Part shown: piece after piece, positions 6,413 through 64,000 of the stretch
Numbering within the stretch: the stretch's first letter is position 1
Layout of the letters: every line of letters starts with the position of its first letter
Assembly (NCBI GenBank): GCA_041742075.1
Contig: JBGSJJ010000015.1
Location: 1,132-65,131 of the forward strand
DNA: 64,000 nucleotides
Origin: Minisyncoccia bacterium
GTDB lineage: Bacteria > Patescibacteriota > Minisyncoccia > Phycocordibacterales > UBA918
Direction: 5' to 3'
Notes under the pieces: model-generated
The model's input: only the letters and a program-made list of their open reading frames with translations
Database searches by the model: none
Told to the model about the DNA's origin: nothing
Translations under genes and position numbers: made by a program

Positions 6413-6447
6413 GCGTTAGTGCCGGAGAGTATACTAGAGACCTTTTG
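6413..6447 (-). promoter_or_regulatory. Candidate sigma70-type promoter (TTGACT-N17-TATACT) for rpoBC, implying a 5' leader of about 400 nt.
   Basis: Minus strand reads ttgactttacaaaaggtctctagtatact. There is no ORF between it and the rpoB start. Confidence 0.35.
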
Positions 6448-6646
6448 TAAAGTCAACTTTTCCACTTGACAACAATACTACCAAGTAAGTGATATTTTCT
6501 GCAATATTCTTGACAAATTGACAAGAAAACACAATGTAATTCAATCTTGAGCGCGCTCCGCCTATTTTCTTGTCTAGACGACAGCGAAAATTCCTCACTC
6601 TCGTTCGTACCAGAGGAAAAGCACCACTAGGTACTTTTCCTCCATA

Positions 6647-9751: not shown

Positions 9752-10084
9752 TTACTGTTGGGGGAAGACTGTGAACAGTTCGGCTCGAGTACTCTCGTCC
9801 ATCTGACTAAGGATGTCTTCAGAAACCCAAACCGGGATAGTGCGCTTCGTGGGTCTCGGCGACTTCCAAACCGGTACATCGGGATCATCTGACCCCGTTA
9901 TGAGCCCAACGAGCTTATCGAGCGGTAATGGATCATCGTTCAGGGTATATGTTCGGCACAGATTAAGGAGCGGCGCACGGCCATATATTTCAGCGTCGAA
10001 ACCCAACCCCGATCTTTCGTGTACAACGATAGCCAAGTGCTGTTGTGCTGGTGGTACAGCACTGACGATGGTGACTTTCGGCAT
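9752..10084 (-). CDS. Hypothetical small protein (110 aa) in GC-rich islet 1. Paralog of the protein at 32078-32389.
   Basis: Local GC about 55-58% against a genome near 47%. Its own TTGACA...TATAAG-like promoter, an aaaagga RBS and a terminator. Shared motif CRxxxxx(D/E)D(P/Y)P...P(L/V)D...(L/I)VLI with the islet-2 protein. Confidence 0.5.
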   Translation of the reverse strand: MPKVTIVSAVPPAQQHLAIVVHERSGLGFDAEIYGRAPLLNLCRTYTLNDDPLPLDKLVGLITGSDDPDVPVWKSPRPTKRTIPVWVSEDILSQMDESTRAELFTVFPQQ

Positions 10085-10184
10085 GTTGGTTTTCCTTTTC
10101 CACGACTTGCAACTGAAGCCACCTTATAACAAATACACCGTTTGTCAATACTGAGCATTTCTGCTAAACTCAAGCCACTTATTT

Positions 10185-48008: not shown

Positions 48009-48039
48009 AAAAAACACTCTCACTCTGAGCGTGTTTTTT
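48009..48039. terminator. Bidirectional terminator AAAAAACAC-N13-GTGTTTTTT between pfkB(+) and the pilin gene(-).
   Basis: Stem plus A/T tracts. Confidence 0.6.
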
Positions 48040-48661
48040 AACTATTGTTACCGAGTCGACACAAGGTAAAGTTGTTCCCTGGAAGAGCGGTGTTTATGAC
48101 TTGTGCCTTGCCACAATTTTGATTCGTCCCTTCTAGTACAAACCAGAGGCTGTATTCTTGAAAACCGGCATTGCAGGTTGCGCCCGTTTGGTTACAGGCA
48201 CTATAGGCTGGTGAAGAGTACGTTTGACCACCTTTTGACACGGTAAAATTCTGGAGTACAGAGATATATGTTGGTACCAAGGCTGTCTCGACATGCGAGG
48301 TGATGTTGCCACTTTGCAAACCAGGCACAACACCAAGAGAAACCGCCGAAGCCGGGGTACCTGCGGTTGGTATACACTGAGCTGGTGTACCCGTATAGGT
48401 GTCACCAATACAGTACGCCCGCTCTCGAAAGTTATTGGCGCTCGAGTGTCCATTCGGGTACCGCCGATTGTCTGAGTAGTAAAGCTCAAGCGCCTTACTG
48501 TATTGATCGACTTGCTGGAGTATCTGTGCGTTCCGACTTTTTTCTCGCGACTGACCAGTCGCAACGACCACAATCGAAGCCAGTACGCCGATAATAGCGA
48601 TTACGACTAAGAGCTCAATCAAGGTGAACCCCTTTGTGTAGTAAGCACGCATACCATGCAT
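48038..48661 (-). CDS. Type IV pilin-like protein, paralog of 14486-14947. Start taken at MHGMRAYYTKGFTLIELL.
   Basis: KGFTLIELLVVIAIIGVLASIV prepilin motif. Cys pairs in the C-terminal region. Confidence 0.7.
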   Translation of the reverse strand: MHGMRAYYTKGFTLIELLVVIAIIGVLASIVVVATGQSREKSRNAQILQQVDQYSKALELYYSDNRRYPNGHSSANNFRERAYCIGDTYTGTPAQCIPTAGTPASAVSLGVVPGLQSGNITSHVETALVPTYISVLQNFTVSKGGQTYSSPAYSACNQTGATCNAGFQEYSLWFVLEGTNQNCGKAQVINTALPGNNFTLCRLGNNS

Positions 48662-48662
48662 T

Positions 48663-49643
48663 TTAAATTCCCCTGATTCGCTCAAGAATACTTGCTACAT
48701 CGAGCCCAAGGTGGGCGTTCAGTTCCTGTGCGGTTCCCGACTCACCAAAACGGTCTTGGACTCCGACTTTAATAACGCGCTTTGGCATGTATTCACTATA
48801 GTACTCAGAAATGGCTCCGCCTAACCCACCAATCACCTGATGCTCTTCGATAGTTACAATCACTTCGTGCTTGGCACCAAAATCATTGAGCGCTTCGGTA
48901 TCAAGTGGTTTGATGGTTGGCATATGCAACACCGACACACCGACGCCTTCGGCATTCATAGTCTCTGCCACCTTAAGCGCAGTATGAACAAGCGTTCCCG
49001 TCACAATAATCCCAACAGTCTTTACGTGGGATGGATCTTTTTCATAAAAAACTTCAGCTACTCCAATCGCAAAGGGTGAGGCTTCCGTGGTCACGACCGG
49101 AGTTTTTTCTCGAGCAATCCGAATGTAGACTGGGCCTTCGTATTTGGCCGCAGCCAAAACGGCTTTCCGGGCTTCAATCGCATCTACCGGGGCAATCACC
49201 ACCATTTTGGGAATGACACGCATAATAGCGATATCCTCAATCGCTTGATGGGTTGCTCCGTCTGGGCCAACTGACACGCCTGCGTGTGCTCCGATTATTT
49301 TTACGTTTGATTCGTTATAGGCAATCGTGGTCCGCACCTGTTCCCAACTTCGGCCTGGTGAAAACATAGCGTAGGAAGCAATAAAAGGTATCTTCCCCAT
49401 CGCTGCCATACCAGAAGCGACTGAAGCCATGTTTTGTTCGGCTATCCCTACCTGCACAAACCGTTCTGGAAACGCTTCCGCAAACAGATTGGTTCTGGTC
49501 GACTCGGTTAAGTCAGCCGACAGCGCGACGACTCGCTCGTCACGCTCACCAGCCAACCGTAAACCCTCGCCATACCCTTCACGGTTTGGCGTCTCTGTTA
49601 CGTTGTCGGTACATACATTTTTATCTAGGTGTTTTGCAAACAT
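48663..49643 (-). CDS. tktB: Transketolase C-terminal section (split transketolase, subunit B).
   Basis: Pyrimidine-binding and C-terminal transketolase domains. Follows the N-terminal section. Confidence 0.9.
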   Translation of the reverse strand: MFAKHLDKNVCTDNVTETPNREGYGEGLRLAGERDERVVALSADLTESTRTNLFAEAFPERFVQVGIAEQNMASVASGMAAMGKIPFIASYAMFSPGRSWEQVRTTIAYNESNVKIIGAHAGVSVGPDGATHQAIEDIAIMRVIPKMVVIAPVDAIEARKAVLAAAKYEGPVYIRIAREKTPVVTTEASPFAIGVAEVFYEKDPSHVKTVGIIVTGTLVHTALKVAETMNAEGVGVSVLHMPTIKPLDTEALNDFGAKHEVIVTIEEHQVIGGLGGAISEYYSEYMPKRVIKVGVQDRFGESGTAQELNAHLGLDVASILERIRGI

Positions 49644-49652
49644 ACTACATTA

Positions 49653-50549
49653 TTATGAGTCAGCTTTAGGAATGGTGCCGGCCAAAGTTCGCAATTTTTG
49701 AAGTGCTACACTTGCTTGCTCACTTTTTGGAACCCGGTCTTCCGGCCCCTTACCCGGCGGATTACCATGCCACCTAAAGTCTCTTTCAAACACATCAACC
49801 CCCTTAGACGGAATGGTGTGGGCGATAATCACTGAAGGCTTTCCATACAAAGACTGTGCTTTGCCGATAGCGTCGTTCACCATACGGATATTGTGTCCAT
49901 CGACTTCTTGCACGTCAAAATTGAAAGCTTCAAACTTATTTCGCAATGACTCAAGTGGCATCACGTCCATGGTGTAACCGTCTATCTGGATACCGTTTCT
50001 ATCAACAATCACAATCAAGTTGTGGAGTTTTTCTTTACCCGCAAGCATCGCCGCCTCCCAGATTTGCCCTTCGTTGAGTTCGCCGTCACCCGTAATGCAG
50101 TAGATGTACTTTGAGGAATACTCATTATTCATACGTTCCGCTATCGCCATACCGACTGCTTGTGAGAGTCCACTACCTAAGGGGCCAGAGCTCGTCTCAA
50201 GTCCAGGCAGTGCTACCCGATGTGGGTGGCCTTGGAGTCTTGATCCAAACTTACGCAGTGTGAGTAGTTCTTCAACCGGGAAGTACCCGCTATGAGCAAG
50301 CGTGGCATACAGAACCGGGCAAATATGCCCCGCCGATAACACGAGTCTATCGCGGTCTTCCCAGGCGGGATCTTTTGGGTTATGGCGAAGCACACGAAAA
50401 TACAGGAGCGCAAATATATCTGCCATATCAAGCGGACCAGCGGTGTGACCACTGCCAGCCGCCACGAGCATTTCAATAATGCTTTGCCTGATGGTGTTAG
50501 CAGTCAGCTCAAGCGAGTGAACCTCAGTTTCAGTAAGATAATGCATCAT
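49653..50549 (-). CDS. tktA: Transketolase N-terminal section (thiamine-diphosphate-binding subunit).
   Basis: GSGHTAGPLDMADIF...ITGDGELNEGQIWEA TPP-binding motif. Confidence 0.9.
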   Translation of the reverse strand: MMHYLTETEVHSLELTANTIRQSIIEMLVAAGSGHTAGPLDMADIFALLYFRVLRHNPKDPAWEDRDRLVLSAGHICPVLYATLAHSGYFPVEELLTLRKFGSRLQGHPHRVALPGLETSSGPLGSGLSQAVGMAIAERMNNEYSSKYIYCITGDGELNEGQIWEAAMLAGKEKLHNLIVIVDRNGIQIDGYTMDVMPLESLRNKFEAFNFDVQEVDGHNIRMVNDAIGKAQSLYGKPSVIIAHTIPSKGVDVFERDFRWHGNPPGKGPEDRVPKSEQASVALQKLRTLAGTIPKADS

Positions 50550-50567
50550 GACTGTAGTATACCGTAC

Positions 50568-51239
50568 CTACACACCAATCAGGGCACAAAGTTGTTTATA
50601 GGCTTCGGCCGGACTATCGGCTTTCGCTACCGCCGAGCCGGGCGCAAAGCGATTCACTCCAGCCTCTTTGAGTGGGAGAATAGTGTGTTCGTTTACCGCA
50701 CCGTCGACACTTATCGGAAGGTTTGGGTAAGTAGTGCGAAGCCTTGAAACAGTGGCCAAGGTTCGCTCATCAAACGGGAGTCCTTGCTTCCCCACTGTTT
50801 TAATTCCCATCACTTGGACAAAGTCTACTTGAGGGAGGTACTTTTCAACATCGCTCAGATCGACGTCGTTCGTGAATGCAAGCCCGAGCGTGTAGCCGTG
50901 CTCACGGGCGTGACTAATTATTTCTTCGTAGGCTGTTGTGCTCCCGTAGTGAATAATGATTCTTCGCACGCCACAACTAAGCAGTGTTCCAAAATACTGT
51001 TCTGGTGCTGTGACCATGCAGTCAACTTCAAGTTCAAAGTCAACCGAGAGCTCTTTGAGCTTGAGCAACTCATGATGGACATCGGTCGGCTCGGTAAATG
51101 GCCACGAGGTACTTGTGACAAACTCACCATCAACGATGTCTACCTGGAGGCTTTTAGCGGTACCCAGAAGAGCTGTAGCAAGTGCCTGTAGTTCAGCAAA
51201 CGAACTCGCTGGCAGTGATGGAATGACGGTATACTCCAT
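50568..51239 (-). CDS. rpe: Ribulose-phosphate 3-epimerase.
   Basis: TIM-barrel epimerase motifs DIVDGEFV...VMGIKTVGKQGLPFDE...SVDGAVN. Confidence 0.75.
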   Translation of the reverse strand: MEYTVIPSLPASSFAELQALATALLGTAKSLQVDIVDGEFVTSTSWPFTEPTDVHHELLKLKELSVDFELEVDCMVTAPEQYFGTLLSCGVRRIIIHYGSTTAYEEIISHAREHGYTLGLAFTNDVDLSDVEKYLPQVDFVQVMGIKTVGKQGLPFDERTLATVSRLRTTYPNLPISVDGAVNEHTILPLKEAGVNRFAPGSAVAKADSPAEAYKQLCALIGV

Positions 51240-51242
51240 GAG

Positions 51243-51698
51243 TTATTCTAACGCATCAATTTTATTAATCCGACGCGTATGGCGCTCCTCCCCGGTAAAC
51301 GATGTCGTGAGCCACTCTGCTACCGCTTCTTTGGCCTCCTCCTCCGAAACAAACCTGGCACCGAGCGAAAGCACATTGGCGTCGTTGTGCTCACGTGAGA
51401 GCGCAATAATCTCTCGAACACCCCCGTAGTAAACGGTTGCACGTATTCCCTTAAAGCGATTGGCTACCATGGCTTCACCCTGACCAGAACCACCCAGAAT
51501 AATCCCAAGACTGCCTGACGCCTTCTGCACCCGCTCGATTGCCAGCTTTATAAAATCTGGGTAATCATCAGTTTCGTTAAACCCTGTTGCGCCACAGTCA
51601 ACGACAGTAAAACCGAGCTCCGTACTCACGAACGGCACTAACACATTCTTCAGTTCAAAACCGGCATGGTCAGTCGCAAAGTAAATGGTCGGTTTCAT
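51243..51698 (-). CDS. rpiB: Ribose-5-phosphate isomerase B.
   Basis: FATDHAGFELK...GILGGSGQGEAM RpiB/LacAB motifs. Confidence 0.88.
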   Translation of the reverse strand: MKPTIYFATDHAGFELKNVLVPFVSTELGFTVVDCGATGFNETDDYPDFIKLAIERVQKASGSLGIILGGSGQGEAMVANRFKGIRATVYYGGVREIIALSREHNDANVLSLGARFVSEEEAKEAVAEWLTTSFTGEERHTRRINKIDALE

Positions 51699-51712
51699 GA
51701 GTTGTTTTAAAT

Positions 51713-52753
51713 CTAGCGTCCCCCTTTTTGGTTAAAAAACCGAGCCAGTGCTCCCACCTGTTCAACAAGCGTGTGTGTGTAGCTTGTTTCGTTGTCATAC
51801 CAAGCCAGCACCTTCACTAAGTTACCGTCAACCACTCGCGTCATCTCAAGGTCGGCGATAGAGGCGTAGCGGGCTCCTATGATGTCAGAGGAAACAATCT
51901 GCTCGTTCGTCACTGCAAAAATATTACCCCACTGTTTACTACTTGCCCCAGCCGTGAGCGCACCATTTACTTCCTCAACGGTAGTTGGTCGTGATGCAAT
52001 AAAGGTAACGTCAACCAGTGAACCGACCACCACCGGCACCCGGACCGCAATCCCATCGAACTTGCCCGCGAGTTCAGTGTGGACAAGCGTAGTAGCCACT
52101 GCCGCTCCGGTTGAAGACGGGATAATGTTCTGAGCCGCTGCACGCCCGCCTCGAAAATCTTTTTTACTTGGACCGTCAACGAGTGACTGTGAAGCCGTAT
52201 ACGCGTGAGTGGTGTTGAGAACAGCCTTTTCAATACCGATGGCTTCTTTAAGGATACCGATGAGTGGACTGGTGGCGTTCGTGGTACATGACGCGTTACT
52301 CACAATATCGCAGGTGGTCAAAATTTCGTCGTTGGCTCCCATGAGCACCGTCGCTCCAGTTATACCGACAGCGGTCGGATCGTCTTTTACTGGCGCTGAG
52401 ATAACAACTCGTTTTGCTCCCGCGGTAAGGTGAGCTTTTGACTTTTCATAGCTCGTGAAGAAGCCGGTAGATTCTACCACCACGTCGATATCCATATCCT
52501 TCCACGGAAGCAAAAGCGGATCACGTTCACTAATCACCCGTACCTCTTTGCCGTTTATAATGAGGGCTGAGTCACTAAAACTCACCTCAAAATCTGCCCG
52601 CCCATACGCAGTATCGTACTTCATCAGGTACGCAATGTTCTCTATATCACCGAGGTCATTGACTGCGACTACCTCAAAGTCAGGATTATCAAAAGCCATC
52701 CGAAAAAAAGTCCGGCCAATTCTTCCAAAACCATTAATTGCTACTCGTGCCAT
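51713..52753 (-). CDS. gap: Glyceraldehyde-3-phosphate dehydrogenase.
   Basis: INGFGRIGR NAD-binding motif and ASCTTN catalytic motif. Confidence 0.93.
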   Translation of the reverse strand: MARVAINGFGRIGRTFFRMAFDNPDFEVVAVNDLGDIENIAYLMKYDTAYGRADFEVSFSDSALIINGKEVRVISERDPLLLPWKDMDIDVVVESTGFFTSYEKSKAHLTAGAKRVVISAPVKDDPTAVGITGATVLMGANDEILTTCDIVSNASCTTNATSPLIGILKEAIGIEKAVLNTTHAYTASQSLVDGPSKKDFRGGRAAAQNIIPSSTGAAVATTLVHTELAGKFDGIAVRVPVVVGSLVDVTFIASRPTTVEEVNGALTAGASSKQWGNIFAVTNEQIVSSDIIGARYASIADLEMTRVVDGNLVKVLAWYDNETSYTHTLVEQVGALARFFNQKGGR

Positions 52754-52801: not shown

Positions 52802-54373
52802 TTACTTTTCTACAGCCTCGTTATCCTCACGACGACGCCGGCCGAAAAGTATAAAGCGGAGCGTTATAAGTGCCAAAATAATTAAGAGTAGCCACAGCAG
52901 GATGCGGAGCAACACTTCCCTCTCTTCGGTTGGCACCACTGGTTCACTCAGCGGAGTTGCTTTCGATACTTCAACCAGGCCCGCAAAATTCATTATTTCA
53001 TTCGCAAAGACATTGAACACACTAAAGGTAACCTCGTACTCGCCCGCTTCAGGCAACGCCGCTAACGTAGCTTCGTAGTAGGTAAAATCCTGGTTGGCGC
53101 GCAGGAGAAATGAGAAGACTTGTTGCTTGAGAGTTGGGTGTGTAAGCGTGACGGTAATCACTTTGAGTTGTTGGGGAAATAGCTCATACGGGATACGTAC
53201 GGTAAACGGATTATTTTGAGCTATCTGGAGAGCACCGTCTTTGAGAGGCATCACTTTACCATTTTGTACTATTTCTACTTGCGTAAAATCAATCCCCGGC
53301 ACACCCGGTGTGGTACTCGCTACGGGTAAACCGTCAGGTTCTTCGCTTGGCACAACACCTGCCTTACGAGCAATCGCGATGGCTCCAGAAGAACGGTTTC
53401 CTGACGAGTCGTAGGAAAATATAGTGTAGTACTGGGTACCGTGCTTAGACAGTGCCTCCATGTCTCTAAAAGAAGACGCTCTTCCTTCATACACTAAATA
53501 GCCATCATTTGGATCTACTGGGAAAAACAAGTGGTTACGGAGGATTCGTACATAGGAAAAATCGTTTTCAGTCGGAAGCGTCCAGTTTAAAAATACATCG
53601 TCAGTAATCGGTTGAGCAGTAAAAAAAGAAACGTTCGCTGGTGCGTCTGTATCAACCTCATCGCTCGTAGTAAAAGAGTCCCGTTTGAGTAAGACTTCTC
53701 TACCAAAGCGGTCATAGCCAAAAAGTTCATACTCATACCGAGTGCCCGGGGTAAGACCAGTCAACATGGTTTCGTGAGACTTAGCAAAGACGTTACTTTT
53801 GATTGAGCTCCCATCATAGACACTCGCTTCCCCGTACCTAAGCAAATACTGTACAGCTGAACTGGTTTCAAAAACAACCCTTGCTCCATTGGTACTTGGT
53901 GTGAGAGAAAAACTCGTCAGTGAAGCCGGAACTCGCGTACTGGGGTTTTGTGTGTCGGTAGAAGTTGCAGTAGGAGTTGGCGGGGGTAACGCAAACGTAC
54001 TCGTCGCCGAAGCCAGCGAGGAGCTTGAAAAATTAGAAAAACCGTCAAAGGCGACGACCGTATAACTATAGGTCGTACTTGCCGTTAGTCCGGTATCGGA
54101 AAAATTCAAAAGGGCTGTGGTAGTAATTAAGACCGCGTCACGATACAGCTGGTAGCCCGTCACTCCAGTGTCATCGGTTGAACTCGCCCATACTATATCT
54201 ATCTGGCTAGTCGCTATCGGAGTAGTCACCACGCCGGTTGGCGTGGTTGGTGCACCGGTATCAGTACCAATCAGCGTCCGCATGATTACGTTTGCATCGC
54301 TTGATGCCGCGAAAACCGGTACGGCCAGAAGTATACCGAGAGTAATTATGCTAATTCTAAAACACTGACTCAT
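52802..54373 (-). CDS. Secreted protein with fibronectin type III-like domains and a C-terminal TM anchor plus an RRRRE tail.
   Basis: Signal peptide. ...IDIVWASSTDDTGVTGYQLYRD... and ...TRYEYELFGYDRFG... FN3-like signatures. C-terminal hydrophobic helix. Confidence 0.55.
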   Translation of the reverse strand: MSQCFRISIITLGILLAVPVFAASSDANVIMRTLIGTDTGAPTTPTGVVTTPIATSQIDIVWASSTDDTGVTGYQLYRDAVLITTTALLNFSDTGLTASTTYSYTVVAFDGFSNFSSSSLASATSTFALPPPTPTATSTDTQNPSTRVPASLTSFSLTPSTNGARVVFETSSAVQYLLRYGEASVYDGSSIKSNVFAKSHETMLTGLTPGTRYEYELFGYDRFGREVLLKRDSFTTSDEVDTDAPANVSFFTAQPITDDVFLNWTLPTENDFSYVRILRNHLFFPVDPNDGYLVYEGRASSFRDMEALSKHGTQYYTIFSYDSSGNRSSGAIAIARKAGVVPSEEPDGLPVASTTPGVPGIDFTQVEIVQNGKVMPLKDGALQIAQNNPFTVRIPYELFPQQLKVITVTLTHPTLKQQVFSFLLRANQDFTYYEATLAALPEAGEYEVTFSVFNVFANEIMNFAGLVEVSKATPLSEPVVPTEEREVLLRILLWLLLIILALITLRFILFGRRRREDNEAVEK

Positions 54374-55134
54374 AGGGCGATAGCGGTGAGGGTGGTGGTG
54401 GCGATATATGTTCCCGGCGCCTGGTTTACACTCCCTCCTATCCCGACTCTAAACAGAATCGTTGTTGTAGCGCCAAGCGGGTGGTTCGAGCCATTTTTGG
54501 TGGCAATGACTTTAGTCGTTGTCGCTAGACCATCCCAACAGGTACTCGCTGAATTACCCGTACCACTGTTACAGTTGCCGGCTAAATCGAGGTAACGACT
54601 CGCAACATCTGCCCCCTCAGGCGAAAACCCGAGTTGAGAATCCGTTGCGTCAGTCGTAAAGGTGAAGTCAGGATTAGCTCCGGTCGGTACATAATCTAAA
54701 ATAGTGTTGGCGCCACTTTGGAGTGCCGGCGTAGTGGCAGACTGAATCATCAAAGCATAGCCCGCTGGGCTATCGGTAATCACGGTCACGGTCGTTGAAC
54801 CATTGGCTGTACCGCCACTAATACCTCCAATACTTGGTGAAAGTACGGTGGTCGTAGCCCCGGAAATAGAAATAAACACCTCTTGCATTTGCTGGTAACC
54901 AGCCCGGAGTTGGTAGTTCGTACTACCAGAATCGCCACTCCCTATCTCACCACCAGTCGATTCAAGAGAGTAGTTTGAAGAATTACTGAGTCCCCCGCTC
55001 GCATTGATACTATCACTCTGTATCGAGTAGTTGGTGCTCTGCATCACCGCGCCGTGGGCCACACTAATGAGTAGCGCAAAAATGAACGCTGTGCCGATTC
55101 CCTGAAAAATTGTACGAAAAGAACTAGTCCACAT
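54370..55134 (-). CDS. Secreted Thr/Ser/Gly-rich beta protein (254 aa), paralog of 56224-56928. Possibly WxL-like.
   Basis: Signal peptide. Shared motifs with its paralog: G(L/I)SGGT(A/S)NG.TTV(T/A)V, N...G...(A/G)S(T/C)W, GTY.ATTTLTA at the C-terminus. Confidence 0.5.
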   Translation of the reverse strand: MWTSSFRTIFQGIGTAFIFALLISVAHGAVMQSTNYSIQSDSINASGGLSNSSNYSLESTGGEIGSGDSGSTNYQLRAGYQQMQEVFISISGATTTVLSPSIGGISGGTANGSTTVTVITDSPAGYALMIQSATTPALQSGANTILDYVPTGANPDFTFTTDATDSQLGFSPEGADVASRYLDLAGNCNSGTGNSASTCWDGLATTTKVIATKNGSNHPLGATTTILFRVGIGGSVNQAPGTYIATTTLTAIAL

Positions 55135-55142
55135 GCTATTTC

Positions 55143-56204
55143 TTACGATTTACGTTTAAACTCGAAGCGAGAGAAAATAAACCGTATAAAAATAAAGAGA
55201 AAGACGAAAGACGCAAAAATGAGCGCAATTATTTTGAGAGGCAGAACGTAAAATACCACTGAGGCTTCATCAATAGCGTTATTATACCCTCGATTGACAT
55301 AGGCTTTGGCGACGTACCGACCCATCAGTAAATCTCGATTCCAGGTTATTTCACGAAGCCGAAGAGAGGCTGGCATAGCAAACCACGGATCAAGCACCTC
55401 AAAGCCAACCTCATCGCCCAGCATGTTAAAAATACGAATCTCTCCGTATGGATTAAGGTGAACTGAGCCAGTGTTTTCATACACTAGTCCAAAGGAAATC
55501 GGACCCTTCCCGTAAAACTTTTTATTTCCCAAGGTCGTAAAGGATTCAAGCTGACCAGAACGCTCAATATCACCAGGTGTGGTGACAAAGAAGAGTGTCC
55601 CAACACGGCTCACAATCGCTGAGGCCGCTGCCGCTCCACTGCTTCCATCGAGATCTGCTTCTCGACTTACCGTTGACACCACCACACTACCATAACGACC
55701 ACCCGGTTCAGCGTCAGCTGGTAAACTCACCGTCACAGGGATTCGTGCCCGCACTCCATGTTCAAGTTCAAACTCCGTTTTAGAAATCTGTATGTAGTCA
55801 CGCAAGGTATACGGACCTCGTTCTGACCCTAAGAGAGTAATGGCAGATGAACCATCAGTTGAACCAGCAGTGTCTTCTATGTCGAGCTTAAACCGCTTTG
55901 GTTCACTCATTCGGTTGGTGACCACAAGTTCGACGGTGCGTGACTGGCCAGGCGCAAGTTCAAGCTCTACTTTGCCAGGACCAACGACGAAGTCATTAAA
56001 AACCTCTTGGTTAGGTAGTACATCACGAGCATACGGGTCAGAGGTTGCTACAGCTACTTCGGACGAAGTACTGACTTCTGTCTCTAGCGGAGTATTTTCT
56101 CCTTCAGTTTCACTCTGGGCTAGGCCAAGAAGCGGAAAGAACGTCAGCGTTAGTACAACCAAAAGTAGTAGCGCAACTGCGCGGTTATGGAGCGAAGTTG
56201 TCAT
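55143..56204 (-). CDS. Cell-surface protein with DUF916/CscA-like architecture: signal peptide, beta-rich ectodomain, C-terminal TM helix, KRKS tail.
   Basis: FVVGPGKVELELAPGQSRTVELVVTN...C-terminal IIALIFASFVFLFIFIRFIFSRFEFKRKS. Confidence 0.45.
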   Translation of the reverse strand: MTTSLHNRAVALLLLVVLTLTFFPLLGLAQSETEGENTPLETEVSTSSEVAVATSDPYARDVLPNQEVFNDFVVGPGKVELELAPGQSRTVELVVTNRMSEPKRFKLDIEDTAGSTDGSSAITLLGSERGPYTLRDYIQISKTEFELEHGVRARIPVTVSLPADAEPGGRYGSVVVSTVSREADLDGSSGAAAASAIVSRVGTLFFVTTPGDIERSGQLESFTTLGNKKFYGKGPISFGLVYENTGSVHLNPYGEIRIFNMLGDEVGFEVLDPWFAMPASLRLREITWNRDLLMGRYVAKAYVNRGYNNAIDEASVVFYVLPLKIIALIFASFVFLFIFIRFIFSRFEFKRKS

Positions 56205-56223
56205 AAGTAACTAGAATTGTAGT

Positions 56224-56928
56224 TTAGTTTTCAGTCGCGGTCAACGTAGCTGTTGCAGTGTAAAAACCAGTCGGAAGTGCTGGAATTGGGTTGGCATCTA
56301 CACCCACCTTAAAAGTCAGAGTGGTAGTCGCTGAACCCACCGTTGCATCAGGGCGGTTTATGATTGTGACCGCGGTAGAGCTTGCATCCGGAACATTGTA
56401 CCAGCAACTTCCAGCAGTTGGAGTACCAGCACCGTTGTTACAGGTGGTATTTACTTCGAACAAAGCTACAGAATCGTCAGCGTCCGTAGGAAATACTGAG
56501 TAGGCAAACTCAGCTGTGCCGGTTGGTATGGCAAACGCAAGGTCTGGTGTACCTGGAGTAACCGGTGTGTAGTTAGAAATAAATCCTCCCCCTGAGCCTT
56601 CACGGTTCATGGCAGTGGAACTAGAAAATCGGATGGTCATGTTGTATCCCGTTGGATTGTTGGCGCGTACTGCTACGGTCGCTGTTCCGTTACTGATACC
56701 TCCCGTAAGCCCAGAGATGTTTGGTGTCATAGCTACGTCTGTAGCGGTAGTAACAAACGCAATTTCACCAAGAATTTGTTGACGCACGGTGAATGTGTCC
56801 ACATCAGAATCTTGAGCAATCATTACTTGTGGCTCAAAGAGGAAGTACGACGCGAGGACCAGTGTCGTGGCAATAAGACCAGCCAGTACAGCCGGAAATA
56901 GGTGTGAGCGTTGTAGTAATGATTTCAT
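56224..56928 (-). CDS. Secreted Thr/Ser/Gly-rich beta protein (234 aa), paralog of 54370-55134.
   Basis: Signal peptide plus the motifs shared with its paralog. Confidence 0.5.
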   Translation of the reverse strand: MKSLLQRSHLFPAVLAGLIATTLVLASYFLFEPQVMIAQDSDVDTFTVRQQILGEIAFVTTATDVAMTPNISGLTGGISNGTATVAVRANNPTGYNMTIRFSSSTAMNREGSGGGFISNYTPVTPGTPDLAFAIPTGTAEFAYSVFPTDADDSVALFEVNTTCNNGAGTPTAGSCWYNVPDASSTAVTIINRPDATVGSATTTLTFKVGVDANPIPALPTGFYTATATLTATEN

Positions 56929-57018
56929 AATGATGTTTAATTTGTTTTATTAATTGTACCTTCTTTTAACTATGATTTTTAACGTATTTTAGCGATACCT
57001 GTGGACAATCTACCGACT

Positions 57019-60000
57019 CTAGATGGCTCCCCCGCCGCCGCCACCCCCGCCCGTGGCCTGGTGGTAGACCCTGACTTCGATACCATCGAGCTGTAGGTCT
57101 GCAATGCTCGAGAGCACCCGGACCCGGAGGGTGGCGTCACTAAACTCGGCTGGCGTCCATGAGTGGCCCCAGGCATCGGTTGGGCCACCGAGCGTATAGA
57201 CTGCATCAGTGTTAGCTAGCGTTGGGGTGAGTTTGGTACTCGTGTAGTTTGAACCAGTGTTCCAAGATAGGTCAACCGCAATCGTCCCGGCTTGGTTTGA
57301 GTAGCGACTATCAAGCTTTACTTCGATACCGACAATCGTATTCGTGACCGGTATCGCAAAACCAAAACCGTTAAAGACATGGGTAGTTGCGCTTGGTGCT
57401 TGGGCGCGGGTGTTGTCTGAAACAAGCGCATTGCCCCCGTTTGTCCAACCACCGCTCTGGGCTGAGGGCCTAAGGAAGTTTGGGTTAGGTGCAATATTTT
57501 CTCCATCAGTTTCTTGGCCGGCTTCCCCGCCTCCTTCCTCTCCCCCGCCCGTTTGTACGCCCTGGCCGGCTGGTGGAGCACCACCAATAGACGCACTACT
57601 GCCTCCTCCACTACTACCAGTATTAGACTCACGGTTATGGTAGACCTGCGAGACTGCTCCACTCACGTTCGCTGAACCTATAATGTCTGCTGGGTAGAGC
57701 TTAAGCACTAAGGCTTCTCGCTTGTCGATATCGACGGTGTCACTCGTTACAATGAAGTTTTGCGTGGTTGAAGAAATAAACGAGGTGCTGAAGACAATTG
57801 TCCCCTGGGTCGCCGATGAAGTTGCAAACACACCGGTGCCCCCTACCTGCACGTCTCCTCCATCAAGCAGGCTATTGCTGTTGATGTCACGATAGAGTCT
57901 CAGGTCGGGAATAGAGCTGGTACTCACTCGATTGCTTATATCAGAGACTCGTAGTGTGAGTGAACTAATGGTGGTCGTGGCTGACGGCGTCAGCGAGAAA
58001 GCAAAGATTGCCACATCATTTTGGTTTTGAAAGCTAAAGACGTTACTCGGTTGCCCATCTTCATGTTCACCTAAGACGAGGTCGGGCACTGCGACATACG
58101 ACCAGTTAGTGGTATTGCCGCTATCAACGCAGCCGGTGAGGCAGCTAATCGGCGTCGTCGTAACACTAATGTTGCGTGAGTCCTGCACGTTCAAGTACGA
58201 AACCGTTGCGGTGGCGTACGGGTCAATGTAGTACTGCGTACCTGGGCTGGTCGAACGGAGAGAAAGTAGATTACCGGCGGTGCCGTTTAGCGTAAGCGTG
58301 CCTCTGGTTTCAAACTCATCACCAGCTCCAAACGTGAGGGTTGAAGAGCTGGTGACATTCTTGGTAAGGTTGAAAAAGCTCGTGGTAGCGTTGTTCTGTA
58401 TGGTCTGAGTGGTACCAGTAAGATAGACCGTACTTGTGGCAGCTCTAAAATTGCCATTAATAGTAAAGTCCCCACTGACACCAAGTGAGCTGGAAGCGAT
58501 TAAGGTCGCTCCACTATTTATGGTTAGGTTGGTAGTCGACGCATTCATTGGTAACGTGGTAGTACCGGCACTCGCTATGATAGTACCGAGGTCGCTAGTG
58601 CCGGTGAGAGTACCCGCGAGTTCCCCTGATACCCTGTACTCGTTAATCTCGACACCTGATACCCCGATAACGTATAAATTCGTACCGTCGGGATTAAAAG
58701 CAAGGCCGGTAGGAGCACCTTCTTGACTTGATACACTGAGGTTTCTTACGAAACTACCCGTCGAAACGTCCCAAGGAGTAGCAAGTGTGTACTTCACAAC
58801 CCTAGCAAACTCAACCCCTGAGACATAAAGTTCTGTGCCCAAAGCATTAAAGGCTATGCCCGATGGATATGAGTCCTGCGCCGCCACCGAGAAGGTATCA
58901 ACAAACGAACCGGTTGATACGTCCCACGGGGTACTGAGGTTGTATTCGTTAATGTCGAAGCCAGCTTCTCCAGAAACATACAACTTAGTACCATCGGGAT
59001 TAAAGGCAAGGTCCATTGGAAAAGTTTCCTGCGCCGCCACCGAGAAAGTATCAACAAACGAACCGGTTGATACGTCCCACGGGGTACTGAGGTTGTATTC
59101 GTTTATATCATTACCGAAATCACCGAGCACATAAAGTTTAGTTCCATTGGGATTGAAAGCTAAGCCGGACGGAGCAGTGTCTTGCCCCGCTACCGAGAAA
59201 GTATCAACAAACGAACCAGTTGATACGTCCCATGGGGTACTGAGGTTGTATTCAGTGATGTCGTCACCCGAAGAACCTATGACATATAACTTTGTACCGT
59301 CGGAATTAAATTCTAGGCCCATAGGAGAAGTCTCTTGTCCAGACACACTGAAAGTGTCCACAGGAGTTACTTGGTTACTGAAATACCCTTGCCCGCTTAG
59401 ATTTAGCGTACCACCATTATCACTGAAAGTTCCAGAGTTGGTCAGGTCACCGGTCGTGAGTGCTGTAGCGGGTGCGGTGAAGGAACCACCAGAAGCAATC
59501 GTAAGTTCGGAGGTCGAAGCGACGGTACTGCTTGAAACATATGAACCAATAATAGTAACACTACCGAGACTGGAAGAGCCCGTTAACGTACCATCGAGTC
59601 CCCTACCTGTTCCCGTGAGAAAAGCGAACTGTCCCGAGGTGGCGTTGTAGATACCGTCGTTGTCAAAAGAGCCACTGAAGGTAGACGAGGCAGCTGCCCT
59701 TAGGCTCGTCCCCGGCCAAACGTAGAAGGTTTGGTTACCTCGAATGTTGAGCTGGTCTTGGTTGGTACTAGTCGAAGTAGTAGTAGCACTGAACTGCAAG
59801 TCACTGTCGTTTTCAAAATCATACAAGGCAAATGGCGTCATGGTCATTTGGCTCGTAGTGGCACTTCTCGCAATCACGTGATCTTTATAGAGATTGAGTC
59901 CCGAGACACTGTTAGTTGAGGACGCTTGGTAGACCAAGGCGGCACGAACCGTGGTCGAGGCGTCTACGAAGAAGGTGTAGGTGGTCGAAGAGAGAAGCGA

Positions 60001-63000
60001 AGTCGTGTCCACACTGAAACTAAAAGCTCCGTTCGCGCTCACCGTGGTGGTTGACTGCGTACTTGGAGTAGTCGTACCGACAGCCAGTGTAATCGTATGG
60101 ACGCCAGTCCGCGGTGTCACACCCTGATCGTTGTACAGTGTTCCAGATAGAAGTATGGTCGGGGCAGCTGGTGGCGCGCCGATAGTCCACTGCGGGGTCT
60201 CTAGGTATTCGGTTAGAGCGGTGACACTACTGGTACCAAACCCCACCCGGAAGTCGTAGACTTCCCCATTGCTGGCGGTTCCGGTCGCGACCAAGCTCCA
60301 CTCAAGCTCGGTGTAGTCATCAGTTGAAATAGCAATACTGTCGGTCGGGTTTTCGTCGTCCTGAATTCGACCTTGATCGAAGTCACCAGTATTCTTACCA
60401 GTCGGTGCACTAAGTTGCGCCGTGGTTGACGCCCCCGAGGCAGCAATGTTGCTTGAGGCTCCAAACTCAATCGATGATGGAATCGTGTAGTAGACATGAG
60501 CCACAATCTGGTCAACGCGGGCAATCCGGTTAGCTCCGTTTGCTACTCCTTGCACCGCAAAGGCAAAGCCAAAGTTACCATTATTGAAGTCGGCTGGGGT
60601 CCAGGTCGTATTCCACAACGCCGTACTACTTCCATACTGCATCTGCCGATCACCAGTACCCCAGTTCGTGGTCACCGCTATGTTTGAACCCACGAGCGCA
60701 CCGTTGCGCATTAACTGCGCCGTGTTGTCACGAATTTCTCCCGCCGAACCCCCAAATCTGTGTCGCTCGATATGGACCTCAATACCAGTAATAGTAGCGG
60801 ACGTCGGAATATTGAGTCCGCCACTGGTTGACGCCACCAGATAGTTTGAAGCAGTGGTACTCGAAACCGTTAATTGCGCAAATACATTGTCCGAGCTGCT
60901 GCTATTGCCTGGATTAGTCCACGCAATCGAGCCAGCGCTGGTATTGTTGTTCCCTGTAAGCGCTGTTTGATAACTTGCTCGAACAGTGTTGGTGGTTGGT
61001 GTCTCAGCTGGTGGAATAGCGATAGTATAAGAAACCCACTGTTCAGTCGCACTGGTAAAGGTGGCTGGGTCGTGGGTACTTGACGCCGTAATGTAACGAT
61101 GAGCGGTGTTTGAGTTGGCACCATTGGTGGTACTGGCAAACTGCGTTATAAGCCCACTATATCCAGACGGTGCCACTGTCGCGGCGGTGTTGGTGCCAGC
61201 TGAAGTGTCCCCCGAACGAGTCACAATCGATAAGTAGTCACGGGCCCCGCTGGTAACTAAGTTTGGTGGATTGCTGTTTGTACCACTACCGTCAGCCGAG
61301 AAAGCGACGGGTGTACCGGCGCCACTGATGCGATACACAATATGCGTACTTTCTTCCGAAGTACCACTGGTGATGGTGAGTACTGGCGAGGTCGTGGTCG
61401 CTATCTGCCAATACACTGCTCCCGTTGTAAGATCACCGTTATAATCAACAGCAAACCTCTCCCAACCCGCTGGTTGATTAAGTGTGCTGGTACCAGCTGC
61501 TGTGTCGAGACTTATGAGTACCATCAGCAAATCCCCTACTTGTACCCCTGACGGCATAGTAATAACGTGCGCGGTTGTGTTTACATTTGACCGACCGCTT
61601 GACGTAGCTTGGATAACCGGAAATGCATCGTCAACCCCGACCGACTTCCACACGCTTGAAGAAGAAATCTTGTATTGGAGACCGAGTTGACTTACTGTGC
61701 TCGTGCTCGTGAGATCAACCAAGGTACGGAGGCGCACGTTTTGATTTACATCAGCGGTGATACTGGTATCTTGTGCTGCTTTCCAGGTTGCTGTCGTTTC
61801 TGAGCCGTCATCGTTACGGAAGCGAAAGCCTTCTTGTGCAATTGAAGACGGGGCACTATACGTACCGATGGTAAACGAAGCACTCGTATCATACGAGCTT
61901 AACGCTGTACTACTCGACTGACCAAGTCTGACTTGATAGACCTCACTTGTCGTCGCGGTACCGGTCGCCATAATACTCCACTCAAACTCGGAGTAGTCGC
62001 TCTCGGAAATAGTCACGGTGTCAGCTGGGTTCTCGTCGTCCTGGATTCGTCCAACGTCAAAGTCACTCGTACTCTTTCCGGACGGGGCGGTGAGCTTAGC
62101 GGTAGTGTTTTCTCCGGACGCAGTAATATTGCTACTTGGCGCCAGCACGATTGGTGGCGGGAGCGTGTAGTAGACCTTGAGGTAGAGATGGTCAACATTC
62201 CCAATTCGGTTGGCGCCTGAAGCTACTCCTTTGGCTGAGAACATCAAACCAAAGTCACTAGCGTTTATTTCGGCCGGTGTCCAGGTGGTTCCCCAGAGCG
62301 CTGTGCTACTTCCGTAGTTTATGTACTGCGGATTATTAAAGATAGTTCCCGCTGCTAAGTTACTACCAATCACACTGCCCGCTTTAACTAGTCGAACTGA
62401 TGAATCTTGAATTTCTCCTGTAGTACCACCATTTGAATACGTTTTTACAGCTGCCTCAATACCTACAATAGTTGCTTGCAGTGGTATAGAAAAACCAAAA
62501 GCATTAGCTTCAAGGTAGCGTGAACTAGTGACACCTGACGCAGTGAAACTAGCATAGCTCGCATCTTCATCAATAATGTTTGTCACACCACTCCAGGCGA
62601 GAGTGCCAAATGAATTGTCTTCACTTCCGACCGGATTGCTATCGAACTGGGTTCGAAGCGAACCTTTAGTTGGTGTCTCTTTCGGCGGAATCGCCATTGT
62701 GTACGTTATCCAAAATGAAGCGAGCGCAGGTACTGACTCCGGCTGTTCACTCACAGCCTCAAGATACCGATGCATAGTCTCGACACCATGTTCACCATTT
62801 ACACCATCTGCTTGTTTAAGAATAAGACCACTGTAGCCTGCTGATGGTCTCCGCAAAAGACCTACTGCACCAGAAGCGTCATAGGACCTTGCTGCTATCC
62901 ATAAATACTTTCTCTGTCCATCAGTCGTAAGCAGTGGAAAATCAGGATCAGCAGTCGTGCCTTCAAGAGCCTGCAGTACCGGATCACCCGCACCACTCAC

Positions 63001-64000
63001 TCGGTAAGCTACATACGCTGACGTATCAGCGGCCAGAGTAGTAAATGTAACAGAAGCATCAGACGTAGTTGCTCGTTTCCAATACACATCAGTGTTGTGA
63101 CTATTGGATTCTGCCTGGTCGTGCCACTTATTCCAACCAGCGCTTGATGGCGTAGTGTTACAGTTTATTGACAAGCAACTAAAAATAACAATTAACAGAT
63201 CATCTTCAACCACACCGCTCGGTAAGGTTATAGTGTGGTTAGTAACCGCGCCGACAGACGCACCACTACTCGTGGCCATGATAGTTGGAAACGAATCATC
63301 CTCAGCTAGAGTATGCCATGAACCGTCGGTTGATTTTTTGTACTGCAGGGCAAGTTGTTCAGTACGCGCTGTGCTGGAACTATTAACCAGGCCACGAAAA
63401 CGCAGGTTGCTGTTAGTTGGCCACGTGACATTAGTGTCTTGCAAGCCTAACCATGTCGCAGAGCTTTCTGAACCATTATCATTGCGGAAGCGGTGACCTT
63501 CTTGAGCAAATGGTGGTTGATACGTACCGATTGTCACCTGCGGATTAACCGCATAAGACGCCAAGGCGGTACTCGTACCAATTCCCATACGCAAGTCATA
63601 AACCTCGCCGCGGGTGGCACCTGAAAACTCAATACTCCATTCCATTTCTGCATAATCATCATTCGATATAACAATTGTATCACTTGGGTTTTCGTCATCT
63701 TGAATCCGGCCAGCATCGAAATCGCCTGAGTTTTTACCGGCTGGTGAAGTTAACTGCACAGTGGTTGAAGCTCCTGAGGCGGTTATGTTTGAGCTTGCAG
63801 AAAGTACGACTGGGCCATCTACAGTGTAGTAGACGTTCATTTGCATATAGTCAATATTAGCTTGCCTATCTGCACCACCCACATTTCCCTGAACAGCCAA
63901 TCCAATACCAAAATTATTACTATTTACCATTGCTGGTGTAAGCGCTGTACCCCAAGTGTCCGTAATTCCCCCATATTCATAATTTAGATAAACGGTATCC
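57019..64000 (-). CDS. Giant extracellular repeat protein (more than 2300 aa), N-terminally truncated by the window edge. At least three copies of a repeat module of about 570 aa, a 5-bladed beta-propeller-like segment (blades of about 50 aa, FNPDGTKLYV...EYNLSTPWDVSTGS), and Gly-rich linkers.
   Basis: The ORF frame stays open upstream of the listed Met (63930) to position 64000. The repeat boundary motif YG..T.LWGTTWTPAE(I/F)N...FG continues upstream. Long internal repeats are visible at both protein and DNA level. Confidence 0.7.
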   Translation of the reverse strand, partial: DTVYLNYEYGGITDTWGTALTPAMVNSNNFGIGLAVQGNVGGADRQANIDYMQMNVYYTVDGPVVLSASSNITASGASTTVQLTSPAGKNSGDFDAGRIQDDENPSDTIVISNDDYAEMEWSIEFSGATRGEVYDLRMGIGTSTALASYAVNPQVTIGTYQPPFAQEGHRFRNDNGSESSATWLGLQDTNVTWPTNSNLRFRGLVNSSSTARTEQLALQYKKSTDGSWHTLAEDDSFPTIMATSSGASVGAVTNHTITLPSGVVEDDLLIVIFSCLSINCNTTPSSAGWNKWHDQAESNSHNTDVYWKRATTSDASVTFTTLAADTSAYVAYRVSGAGDPVLQALEGTTADPDFPLLTTDGQRKYLWIAARSYDASGAVGLLRRPSAGYSGLILKQADGVNGEHGVETMHRYLEAVSEQPESVPALASFWITYTMAIPPKETPTKGSLRTQFDSNPVGSEDNSFGTLAWSGVTNIIDEDASYASFTASGVTSSRYLEANAFGFSIPLQATIVGIEAAVKTYSNGGTTGEIQDSSVRLVKAGSVIGSNLAAGTIFNNPQYINYGSSTALWGTTWTPAEINASDFGLMFSAKGVASGANRIGNVDHLYLKVYYTLPPPIVLAPSSNITASGENTTAKLTAPSGKSTSDFDVGRIQDDENPADTVTISESDYSEFEWSIMATGTATTSEVYQVRLGQSSSTALSSYDTSASFTIGTYSAPSSIAQEGFRFRNDDGSETTATWKAAQDTSITADVNQNVRLRTLVDLTSTSTVSQLGLQYKISSSSVWKSVGVDDAFPVIQATSSGRSNVNTTAHVITMPSGVQVGDLLMVLISLDTAAGTSTLNQPAGWERFAVDYNGDLTTGAVYWQIATTTSPVLTITSGTSEESTHIVYRISGAGTPVAFSADGSGTNSNPPNLVTSGARDYLSIVTRSGDTSAGTNTAATVAPSGYSGLITQFASTTNGANSNTAHRYITASSTHDPATFTSATEQWVSYTIAIPPAETPTTNTVRASYQTALTGNNNTSAGSIAWTNPGNSSSSDNVFAQLTVSSTTASNYLVASTSGGLNIPTSATITGIEVHIERHRFGGSAGEIRDNTAQLMRNGALVGSNIAVTTNWGTGDRQMQYGSSTALWNTTWTPADFNNGNFGFAFAVQGVANGANRIARVDQIVAHVYYTIPSSIEFGASSNIAASGASTTAQLSAPTGKNTGDFDQGRIQDDENPTDSIAISTDDYTELEWSLVATGTASNGEVYDFRVGFGTSSVTALTEYLETPQWTIGAPPAAPTILLSGTLYNDQGVTPRTGVHTITLAVGTTTPSTQSTTTVSANGAFSFSVDTTSLLSSTTYTFFVDASTTVRAALVYQASSTNSVSGLNLYKDHVIARSATTSQMTMTPFALYDFENDSDLQFSATTTSTSTNQDQLNIRGNQTFYVWPGTSLRAAASSTFSGSFDNDGIYNATSGQFAFLTGTGRGLDGTLTGSSSLGSVTIIGSYVSSSTVASTSELTIASGGSFTAPATALTTGDLTNSGTFSDNGGTLNLSGQGYFSNQVTPVDTFSVSGQETSPMGLEFNSDGTKLYVIGSSGDDITEYNLSTPWDVSTGSFVDTFSVAGQDTAPSGLAFNPNGTKLYVLGDFGNDINEYNLSTPWDVSTGSFVDTFSVAAQETFPMDLAFNPDGTKLYVSGEAGFDINEYNLSTPWDVSTGSFVDTFSVAAQDSYPSGIAFNALGTELYVSGVEFARVVKYTLATPWDVSTGSFVRNLSVSSQEGAPTGLAFNPDGTNLYVIGVSGVEINEYRVSGELAGTLTGTSDLGTIIASAGTTTLPMNASTTNLTINSGATLIASSSLGVSGDFTINGNFRAATSTVYLTGTTQTIQNNATTSFFNLTKNVTSSSTLTFGAGDEFETRGTLTLNGTAGNLLSLRSTSPGTQYYIDPYATATVSYLNVQDSRNISVTTTPISCLTGCVDSGNTTNWSYVAVPDLVLGEHEDGQPSNVFSFQNQNDVAIFAFSLTPSATTTISSLTLRVSDISNRVSTSSIPDLRLYRDINSNSLLDGGDVQVGGTGVFATSSATQGTIVFSTSFISSTTQNFIVTSDTVDIDKREALVLKLYPADIIGSANVSGAVSQVYHNRESNTGSSGGGSSASIGGAPPAGQGVQTGGGEEGGGEAGQETDGENIAPNPNFLRPSAQSGGWTNGGNALVSDNTRAQAPSATTHVFNGFGFAIPVTNTIVGIEVKLDSRYSNQAGTIAVDLSWNTGSNYTSTKLTPTLANTDAVYTLGGPTDAWGHSWTPAEFSDATLRVRVLSSIADLQLDGIEVRVYHQATGGGGGGGGAI

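Follow-up and report, generated by a model that had tools for sequence, protein, structure and literature searches.

A conserved gene cluster of Parcubacteria-group bacteria encodes the components of a probable usher-less, chaperone-assisted surface fibre

Positions 52802-64000 of a 64,000-nucleotide (nt) stretch of contig JBGSJJ010000015.1, from a Minisyncoccia bacterium (assembly GCA_041742075.1; the whole stretch is called the window here), carry five consecutive, co-oriented open reading frames (ORFs) on the minus strand. Four of them, encoding a chaperone-like protein of 353 amino acids (aa), two pilin-like subunits of 254 and 234 aa and a 523-aa protein with FN3 domains and a transmembrane (TM) helix, probably specify a surface fibre that is assembled by donor-strand complementation, with the help of a chaperone and without an usher. 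In this monoderm member of the Candidate Phyla Radiation (CPR), the fibre would be a minimal, Parcubacteria-type relative of Pam pili and WxLIP systems. The fifth ORF encodes a giant Sec-secreted surface protein, probably a cargo that binds the host or a substrate. The Parcubacteria/Paceibacteria are the largest CPR group; to our knowledge, they have almost no cultured members, and type IV pili are their only known means of host contact.

The 353-aa protein is a genuine relative of WxLIP/DUF916 proteins, by sequence and by fold. In the WxL/Csc clusters of Lactobacillales and Bacillales, WxL proteins are encoded together with WxLIP, a protein of DUF916-DUF3324-TM architecture (Siezen 2006, PMC1534035; Hassan & Williamson 2023, PMC10599100). 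The 353-aa protein matches Pfam PF06030 (DUF916/WxLIP_PGBD) with 27.4 bits, just above its gathering score (27.3), and the solved WxLIP of Enterococcus faecium (EfmWxLIP1 in the PDB) is matched at 8e-7 by phmmer and at 4.8e-9 by the family profile. We used AlphaFold2 (AF2) models of the 353-aa and 254-aa proteins, both as monomers. The model of the 353-aa protein, with a predicted local distance difference test score (pLDDT) of 76.6, comprises a signal peptide, two beta-sandwich (Ig-like) domains and a C-terminal TM helix (residues 323-346). Foldseek ranks WxLIP first (9i1y, and 9i25 with WxLIP 'bound to long WxL'; 5.9e-13 to about 1e-12) over ∼272 columns that span both domains. RbmA follows (1e-10), and then come the chaperones of chaperone-usher systems, CfaA, CsuC, Caf1M, YadV, EcpB, CupB2 and DraB (1e-9 to 1e-6). 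A first-pass annotation, made from the letters of the window and a list of its ORFs, had called this protein DUF916/CscA-like, with a C-terminal TM helix and a KRKS tail. These data bear that out, the sequence after the helix ending in FEFKRKS. The DUF3324 domain, which the annotation had proposed to search for, gave no hidden Markov model (HMM) match at E<=1. The short cytoplasmic tail, RFxxxRFEFKRK (window 55143-55180), is nearly invariant in 48 homologs, which hints at a cytoplasmic partner or at a topology or retention signal. An SR(I/V)GTLFF(I/V) strand of the chaperone-like protein is invariant and is a candidate for the strand lent to the subunits.

The same family is found in loci of the Pam type. 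The Pam pilus of Candidatus Mycosynbacter amalyticus was described in 2026 (Troman et al., bioRxiv 10.64898/2026.03.03.709456). According to this preprint, cryo-EM shows filaments in which PamA and PamB are joined through donor-strand exchange; the system further includes two TM-anchored, PapD-like chaperones (PamC and PamD), a terminator with FnIII domains and a TM segment (PamR) and a proposed tip subunit that lacks a donor strand (PamT), with no trans-envelope machine. The same source links pam operons to ATP synthase, reports them mainly in Saccharimonadia and Microgenomatia, and mentions a 'tail fibre-like protein'. Our genome scan with the chaperone profile yielded 49 related loci, 47 of them syntenic with the cluster and two divergent (L049 and L050). 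L049 carries a pilin of the Pam_pilin_C type, and L050 carries a PamR homolog (127 bits, 6.5e-37), as judged with the NCBIfam models NF058581 (Pam_pilin_C) and NF058578 (PamR). Both loci contain paired TM-anchored proteins (at 1100-2113 and 3667-4680 in L049, and at 9863-10954 and 10920-11936 in L050), and the chaperone family HMM matches them at 4.7e-52, 5.3e-21, 5.7e-18 and 4.8e-11; their identity as PamC/D comes from locus context, not from a PamC/D model. Both L049 paralogs pass PF06030, while one L050 protein falls below threshold (14.2 bits) and the other has no match. The chaperone-like proteins of Pam-type loci thus belong to the DUF916/WxLIP family, which forms a bridge between Firmicute WxL clusters and the Pam pili of CPR bacteria. 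The Pam preprint mentions neither WxL nor DUF916 (bioRxiv 10.64898/2026.03.03.709456), and among the papers searched we found none that connects 'WxL' with 'donor strand' in this sense, or DUF916 with CPR. L049 also encodes a cohesin-domain protein (5962-6471).

The first-pass annotation had described two paralogous secreted beta proteins of about 240 aa, and the paralogy is confirmed: the 254-aa and 234-aa proteins share 31% identity over 177 aa (E 3e-17), and their families find each other reciprocally by HMM (3.6e-38 and 2.8e-33). The 254-aa protein is a distant homolog of PamT. It matches NCBIfam NF058579 (CPR_pilus_PamT) at 1.3e-10, and all 31 family members examined match as well, the best at 6.1e-14; the score of 41 bits falls far short of the 240 required for an equivalog, and the alignment covers only residues 19-135. 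Its family comprises more than 1585 homolog clusters at the 90% identity level, with members 55-77% identical. The 234-aa protein has 47 syntenic homologs and no Pfam or NCBIfam match.

In the AF2 model of the 254-aa protein (pLDDT 70), residues 88-253 form a beta-sandwich and residues 29-83 are disordered (pLDDT <50). The top 50 Foldseek matches are mostly donor-strand subunits, among them CfaB, the PapG pilin domain, PapE, CsuA/B, FimA, Caf1, EcpA, TasA, TLP-1 and cannulae, and most of those at the head of the ranking have probabilities of 0.9-1.0. The N-terminal extension is conserved to the same degree as the fold: it holds three S-x-N-Y-x-L motifs and the sequence AGYQQMQEV, with 17 invariant positions in the family alignment (A1), and is a candidate donor or linker strand region. 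In L050, a pilin-like protein with two domains also carries the triple S-x-N-Y-x-L at its N-terminus (E 2e-6). The 234-aa protein lacks the triple motif and retains a strand, D-x-F-T-V-T-Q-x-I-x-x-E-I-S-F, before its beta-sandwich. Common to both paralogs are a Cys pair and a highly conserved last strand, G-x-Y-x-A-T-x-T-L-T-A, which reads G-x-Y-x-A-T-T-T-x-T-A in the 254-aa family.

The first-pass annotation had found the C-termini of the small proteins reminiscent of WxL domains, and neither HMM nor profile tests detect such a domain in either of them. For this comparison, we assembled four Enterococcus WxL clusters (L051-L054) and 120 WxL proteins, aligned as A3. Pfam PF13731 (WxL) matches none of 31 members of the 254-aa family at E<=10. 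Alignment of A1 with A3 by hhalign gives E 0.068, with only GYxLxI aligned to GWxLxV, and a combined pilin-domain profile against WxL gives E 0.14, with no significant result at either of two mact settings. Nothing was found in HMM-versus-sequence searches between the two families in either direction, nor with an earlier alignment of seven WxL sequences. On these grounds, WxL homology of the small proteins is not supported. Under relaxed hhalign settings, both WxL motif positions become collinear (GYxLxI with GWxLxV, YxATxTLTA with YxTxLTWxL), again without significance, and the C-terminal strands look similar by eye; we regard this as a lead, not a result. The WxL chain of 9i25 is missing from the Foldseek top 50, which is uninformative, as a search of the PDB with the WxL profile retrieves no chain at all. 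The annotation had named, as grounds against its WxL reading, a lack of WxL or DUF916 similarity and a predicted structure of unrelated function, such as pilins or enzymes: DUF916 similarity was found, WxL similarity was not, and the fold prediction points to pilins.

For the 523-aa protein, the annotation's description of an FN3-domain protein with a C-terminal anchor stands. Pfam fn3 matches two stretches (3.1e-7), and the protein runs from a signal peptide through three FN3-like domains and another beta domain to a hydrophobic TM helix near the C-terminus and an RRRRE tail. Homologs occupy the same position in 43 related loci. NF058578 matches neither this protein nor five of its homologs. 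We propose that it may serve as a membrane anchor or fibre terminator, being PamR-like in architecture only.

The order pil234 (the 234-aa gene), chaperone, pil254 (the 254-aa gene) and FN3/TM gene is kept in about 46 of the 49 related loci, and GAPDH then follows in about 28, mostly those in which the contig reaches far enough. By contrast with this fixed core, the slot upstream of pil234 is variable. In eight loci it holds a giant that shares the C-terminal domain and the poly-Gly tail; elsewhere it is taken by unrelated secreted proteins of 700 to >3000 aa, by a helix-turn-helix (HTH) protein, or by GatB/Obg/SecA. In the window, the ORF calls confirm the five minus-strand genes of the first-pass annotation and give their coordinates (Table 1). 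From the 52802 side, the gaps are -4, 8, 19 and 90 nt, the last separating the end of the giant gene from the 234-aa gene. Family HMMs find no paralogs of the cluster proteins elsewhere in the window.

The annotation's guess of a CPR or small-genome host was right. Besides the lineage of the assembly, the named homologs and all 49 related loci point to Patescibacteria, mostly of the Parcubacteria group (Kaiserbacteria, Nomurabacteria, Zambryskiibacteria and Paceibacteria), with some loci on mis-binned contigs; further named homologs are from Parcubacteria and Pacebacteria. The contigs of L006, L017 and L022 are binned as Azotimanducaceae, Nanoarchaeia and Balneolia, and many others carry the label 'uncultured Candidatus Saccharibacteria'. 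These odd taxon names on contigs bearing the cluster probably reflect mis-binning or generic labelling.

Table 1. Features of the cluster and of the adjoining block, in window coordinates
Feature	Position	Strand	Basis or remark
GAPDH, RpiB, Rpe and split-transketolase block, directly downstream of the cluster	48663-52753	-	
Gene for 523-aa FN3+TM protein	52802..54373	-	ORF call
Gene for 254-aa pilin-like subunit	54370..55134	-	ORF call
N-terminal extension of 254-aa subunit (aa 29-87)	54874..55050	-	conserved, disordered in monomer model
Gene for 353-aa WxLIP/DUF916-type protein	55143..56204	-	ORF call
Gene for 234-aa pilin-like subunit	56224..56928	-	ORF call
Gene for giant protein (3' 6.98 kb of 2758 codons)	57019..64000 (window edge)	-	ORF open to window end
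Giant: C-terminal D4-type domain and tail YHQATG8AI	57022..57507	-	HMM 1.4e-62; 30-40% identical to internal D4 copies
Giant: five tandem 51-aa propeller-like blades	58597..59361	-	repeat analysis
Giant: extra D1	60136-60471	-	domain HMM map
Giant: two complete D1-D2-D3-D4 modules	62146-63810 and 60466-62151	-	chunk BLAST, alignment, domain HMMs
Giant: D4 tail of first module	63805-63999	-	domain HMM map

The giant continues past the window, as the first-pass annotation had stated: upstream of the ATG at 63930 its frame meets no stop codon and runs off the end. The N-terminus, which the annotation had hoped to recover by extending the contig, was obtained from a 2758-aa database protein (P0361). 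The 2326 aa encoded in the window are 100% identical to residues 433-2758 of this protein, which places 432 aa (1296 nt) of the giant beyond the window. Extension of the contig with three cluster proteins as queries returned only a 4.7-kb Logan contig, and P0361 has no contig record there. According to the domain HMM map, the full-length protein runs from a signal peptide through D2-D3-D4, two complete sets of D1-D2-D3-D4, an extra D1, a T/S-rich region and the five blades to a further beta-rich region, a Gly/Glu-rich linker, D4 and G8-AI. The three modules are of about 557 aa, close to the annotation's estimate of at least three repeats of about 570 aa. Its five-bladed propeller corresponds to five 51-aa repeats, seen as a 153-nt DNA repeat in three copies; the WD40 match is weak (E 0.004).

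Two further claims about the giant fell. Gly10 linkers were not found, as the only run of four or more Gly residues is the C-terminal G8. The module identity, given as 50-60%, is 37-57% at the protein level (chunk BLAST) and 54% at the DNA level. We also rejected the idea that the modules are prone to recombination and phase variation, because of this low DNA identity and a longest common exact run of 12 nt; such events are possible only between two propeller blades, which have a 48-nt run in common.

The poly-Gly C-terminus was correctly read. The protein ends in ...QATGGGGGGGGAI, and the conserved tail occurs in eight loci and among 150 representatives in 5; it resembles some kind of signal for sorting or attachment. 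Its consensus is V(R/K)(V/P)Y(H/T)Q(A/T)-Gly8-10 plus two residues (AI, EI, GL, GI or RI; window 57022-57051), kept in L002, L004, L009, L011, L034 and L037 and in P0362, P0363, P0368 and P0369, with C-terminal domains 34-53% identical. The giant matches no Pfam, NCBIfam or PHROG family and, in the PDB, phmmer finds only the weak WD40 similarity; D4 and D3 profiles give nothing credible there. D1-D4 are widespread, shuffled domain families, with 11,514 representatives at E<=1e-3. Many D3-containing proteins (among P0374-P0506) start at residue 2 and have no signal peptide. D4 is found once in the 'tail tubular protein A' of an uncultured phage (MW202478.1), a weak match (E 8e-6). For the giant of the window, we infer an adhesin role from size, secretion, repeat architecture and position.

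We propose the following mechanism, in which strand donation, polymerisation, the part played by the FN3 protein and a physical link to the giant are our suggestions. All cluster proteins would be exported by Sec. The 254-aa and 234-aa subunits would be pilin-like beta-sandwiches, and the 353-aa protein, anchored in the cytoplasmic membrane through its C-terminal helix, would hold and stabilise them by lending a strand; as such, we propose it as a membrane-anchored pilin chaperone similar to PamC/D. Subunits would join head to tail when the N-terminal extension or linker strand of one displaces the chaperone strand in the next. The FN3 protein may anchor or terminate the fibre at the membrane through its C-terminal TM helix, and the giant would be a lineage-variable cargo or adhesin shown with or beside the fibre. 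A precedent for strand lending exists in the WxL field, where AF2 modelling has a strand of WxLIP complete the beta-sandwich of WxL (PMC10599100); this is the logic of donor-strand complementation.

Several observations weigh against a fibre of this kind. No filament has been observed for this lineage. Foldseek E-values of the pilin model are marginal (1.7e-3 or worse, with TM-scores of 0.43-0.57), and the model itself is of medium confidence. No cluster protein matches NF058581 at E<=1, both subunits are single-domain, and the cluster holds neither a two-domain major pilin of the PamA/PamB type nor a PamR match. The 254-aa protein could be a cap instead of a polymerising pilin, since the proposal for PamT is that it sits at the tip and lacks a donor strand. 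As to the giant, the pilin HMMs miss it, it has no detectable pilin-like domain or donor motif, and its slot is empty or filled by unrelated genes in many loci. A promoter and terminator scan gave counts no higher than in shuffled sequence and was uninformative.

Some of these points would fit a surface complex of the WxL/Csc type that forms no filament. There, the small proteins would be platform modules that bind the wall, the DUF916 protein would stabilise them, and the giant would be displayed without any polymer. The published WxL model is indeed a platform and not a pilus (PMC10599100), the 353-aa protein is a true WxLIP relative, the gene order is that of an Enterococcus faecalis WxL cluster, and only single-domain subunits and one chaperone are present; the collinear WxL motif positions at relaxed settings point the same way. 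We nevertheless consider this reading unlikely. WxL went undetected in every statistical test, and the 254-aa family shows significant homology to PamT, a component of a pilus. Among the fold matches, pilins that polymerise rank best. No domain akin to the small proteins is present at the C-terminus of the giant, and a long N-terminal extension that is invariant yet disordered is hard to explain in a monomeric wall binder. A sortase-dependent pilus of the Gram-positive type, or a cluster of LPXTG-anchored adhesins, would likewise suit a monoderm host with small secreted beta-sandwich proteins beside a giant surface protein. It is very improbable, given that no C-terminus has an LPXTG-like motif, no sortase or isopeptide family is matched among the five proteins, and the fold matches are donor-strand rather than isopeptide pilins.

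A separate question is whether the giant belongs to the system at all. The core could be a fibre or a complex and the giant a mere neighbour, that is, an independent secreted or S-layer-like protein in a hypervariable slot. The varied occupants of this slot, the absence of D1-D3 from nearly all other loci's giants, the 90-nt gap and the lack of any domain common to giant and core make this quite possible, though we do not favour it. The giant is adjacent and on the same strand, and in eight related loci exactly this position is kept by a giant that shares its C-terminal domain and poly-Gly tail. Moreover, large partners are a feature of both known systems: Pam-type loci also have large fibre-like proteins (the 'tail fibre-like protein' of bioRxiv 10.64898/2026.03.03.709456), and WxL clusters carry a large variable one (PMC10599100). 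A chaperone-assisted fibre, with the giant as a probable cargo on or beside it, is our preferred reading of the cluster.

The rest of the window is ordinary chromosome, with genes for RpoB, RNase R, SMC, DnaE, GyrB, PheT and RF. A type IV pilin-like ORF (48038-48685, minus strand) has the transketolase genes on one side and a PfkB kinase gene on the other; its N-terminal methylation motif (PF07963, 3.9e-8) indicates that the organism also carries type IV pilus components near the cluster. Two minus-strand ORFs amid the housekeeping genes, of 933 aa (26744-29545) and 382 aa (37687-38835), have no Pfam match at E<=1e-5.

The cluster is conserved, with more than 1500 clusters of subunit homologs and a fixed order in nearly all related loci, yet it is essentially unannotated. 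If a fibre is built, the Pam-type pilus would reach the biggest CPR class, in a stripped-down form, and the 'pili-like' appendages seen on ultrasmall bacteria from groundwater would have a concrete candidate in this cluster. The long-enigmatic WxL clusters of enterococci, listeriae and lactobacilli might then also use donor-strand complementation, via the common DUF916 chaperone. More speculatively, WxL/Csc clusters, the Pam pili of Saccharibacteria and the Parcubacteria cluster may all descend from a single ancient donor-strand system of monoderms, a 'chaperone without usher' with the tethered DUF916/WxLIP protein as its hallmark. WxL domains would then be diverged acceptors of the pilin type, and the Parcubacteria form would be both minimal, with single-domain subunits and a long N-terminal donor segment, and widespread (>1500 clusters at 90% identity), displaying hypervariable giants for host contact. 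We put this forward tentatively.

Compared with known systems, the cluster is analogous, or at most very remotely related, to the chaperone-usher pili (Pap, Fim, CFA/I, Csu and Caf1). The folds of the subunit and chaperone models and the proposed logic of donor-strand complementation and exchange are alike; on the other hand, there is no outer membrane and no sequence similarity. Membership in the classical group was rejected, as no usher family occurs among the five proteins and the chaperone-like protein is TM-anchored, not soluble. Membership among sortase pili was rejected on the C-termini and family matches given above.

The resemblance to WxL/Csc clusters, with which the first-pass annotation had begun, holds in part. 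A WxLIP-type protein is present by sequence and fold (9i1y, 9i25), as are two small secreted beta proteins and a large variable surface protein; the order of large protein, small beta protein and DUF916-TM protein is the same as in E. faecalis L054; and a chaperone-like insertion of a WxLIP strand into its partner is predicted. In contrast, PF13731 is not detectable in the small proteins or the giant, DUF3324 is not found by HMM, and there is an extra FN3/TM gene. The host is a member of the Patescibacteria rather than of the Bacillota, and the small proteins have a long conserved N-terminal extension. The giant ends in a D4-type domain and G8 tail unrelated to the small proteins, unlike large WxL proteins. 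Of the annotation's Csc/WxL analogy, the DUF916 call and the organisation hold, and WxL membership does not.

The Pam pilus differs from the cluster in having two-domain pilins (PamA/PamB/PamE) and Pam_pilin_C, two chaperones instead of one, and a PamR with RbmA-like tandem FnIII domains, to which the FN3 protein here, with three to four domains, shows no similarity. The PamT similarity stays well under the equivalog cutoff, the host is of the Parcubacteria group, and filaments have been seen for Pam but not for the cluster. Both systems belong to CPR hosts, export their components by Sec and do without a trans-envelope machine. They also have in common a subunit of PamT kinship and conserved Cys pairs; a TM-anchored, PapD-like chaperone, the one here being homologous to the paired genes of L049 and L050; a candidate anchor that is rich in FnIII domains and ends in a TM helix; a large, fibre-like protein in the vicinity; and a housekeeping metabolic gene adjoining the operon (GAPDH here, ATP synthase in pam). 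The Pam pilus is a closer known match than WxL/Csc, and the two comparisons converge, since the chaperones of Pam loci are themselves DUF916 proteins.

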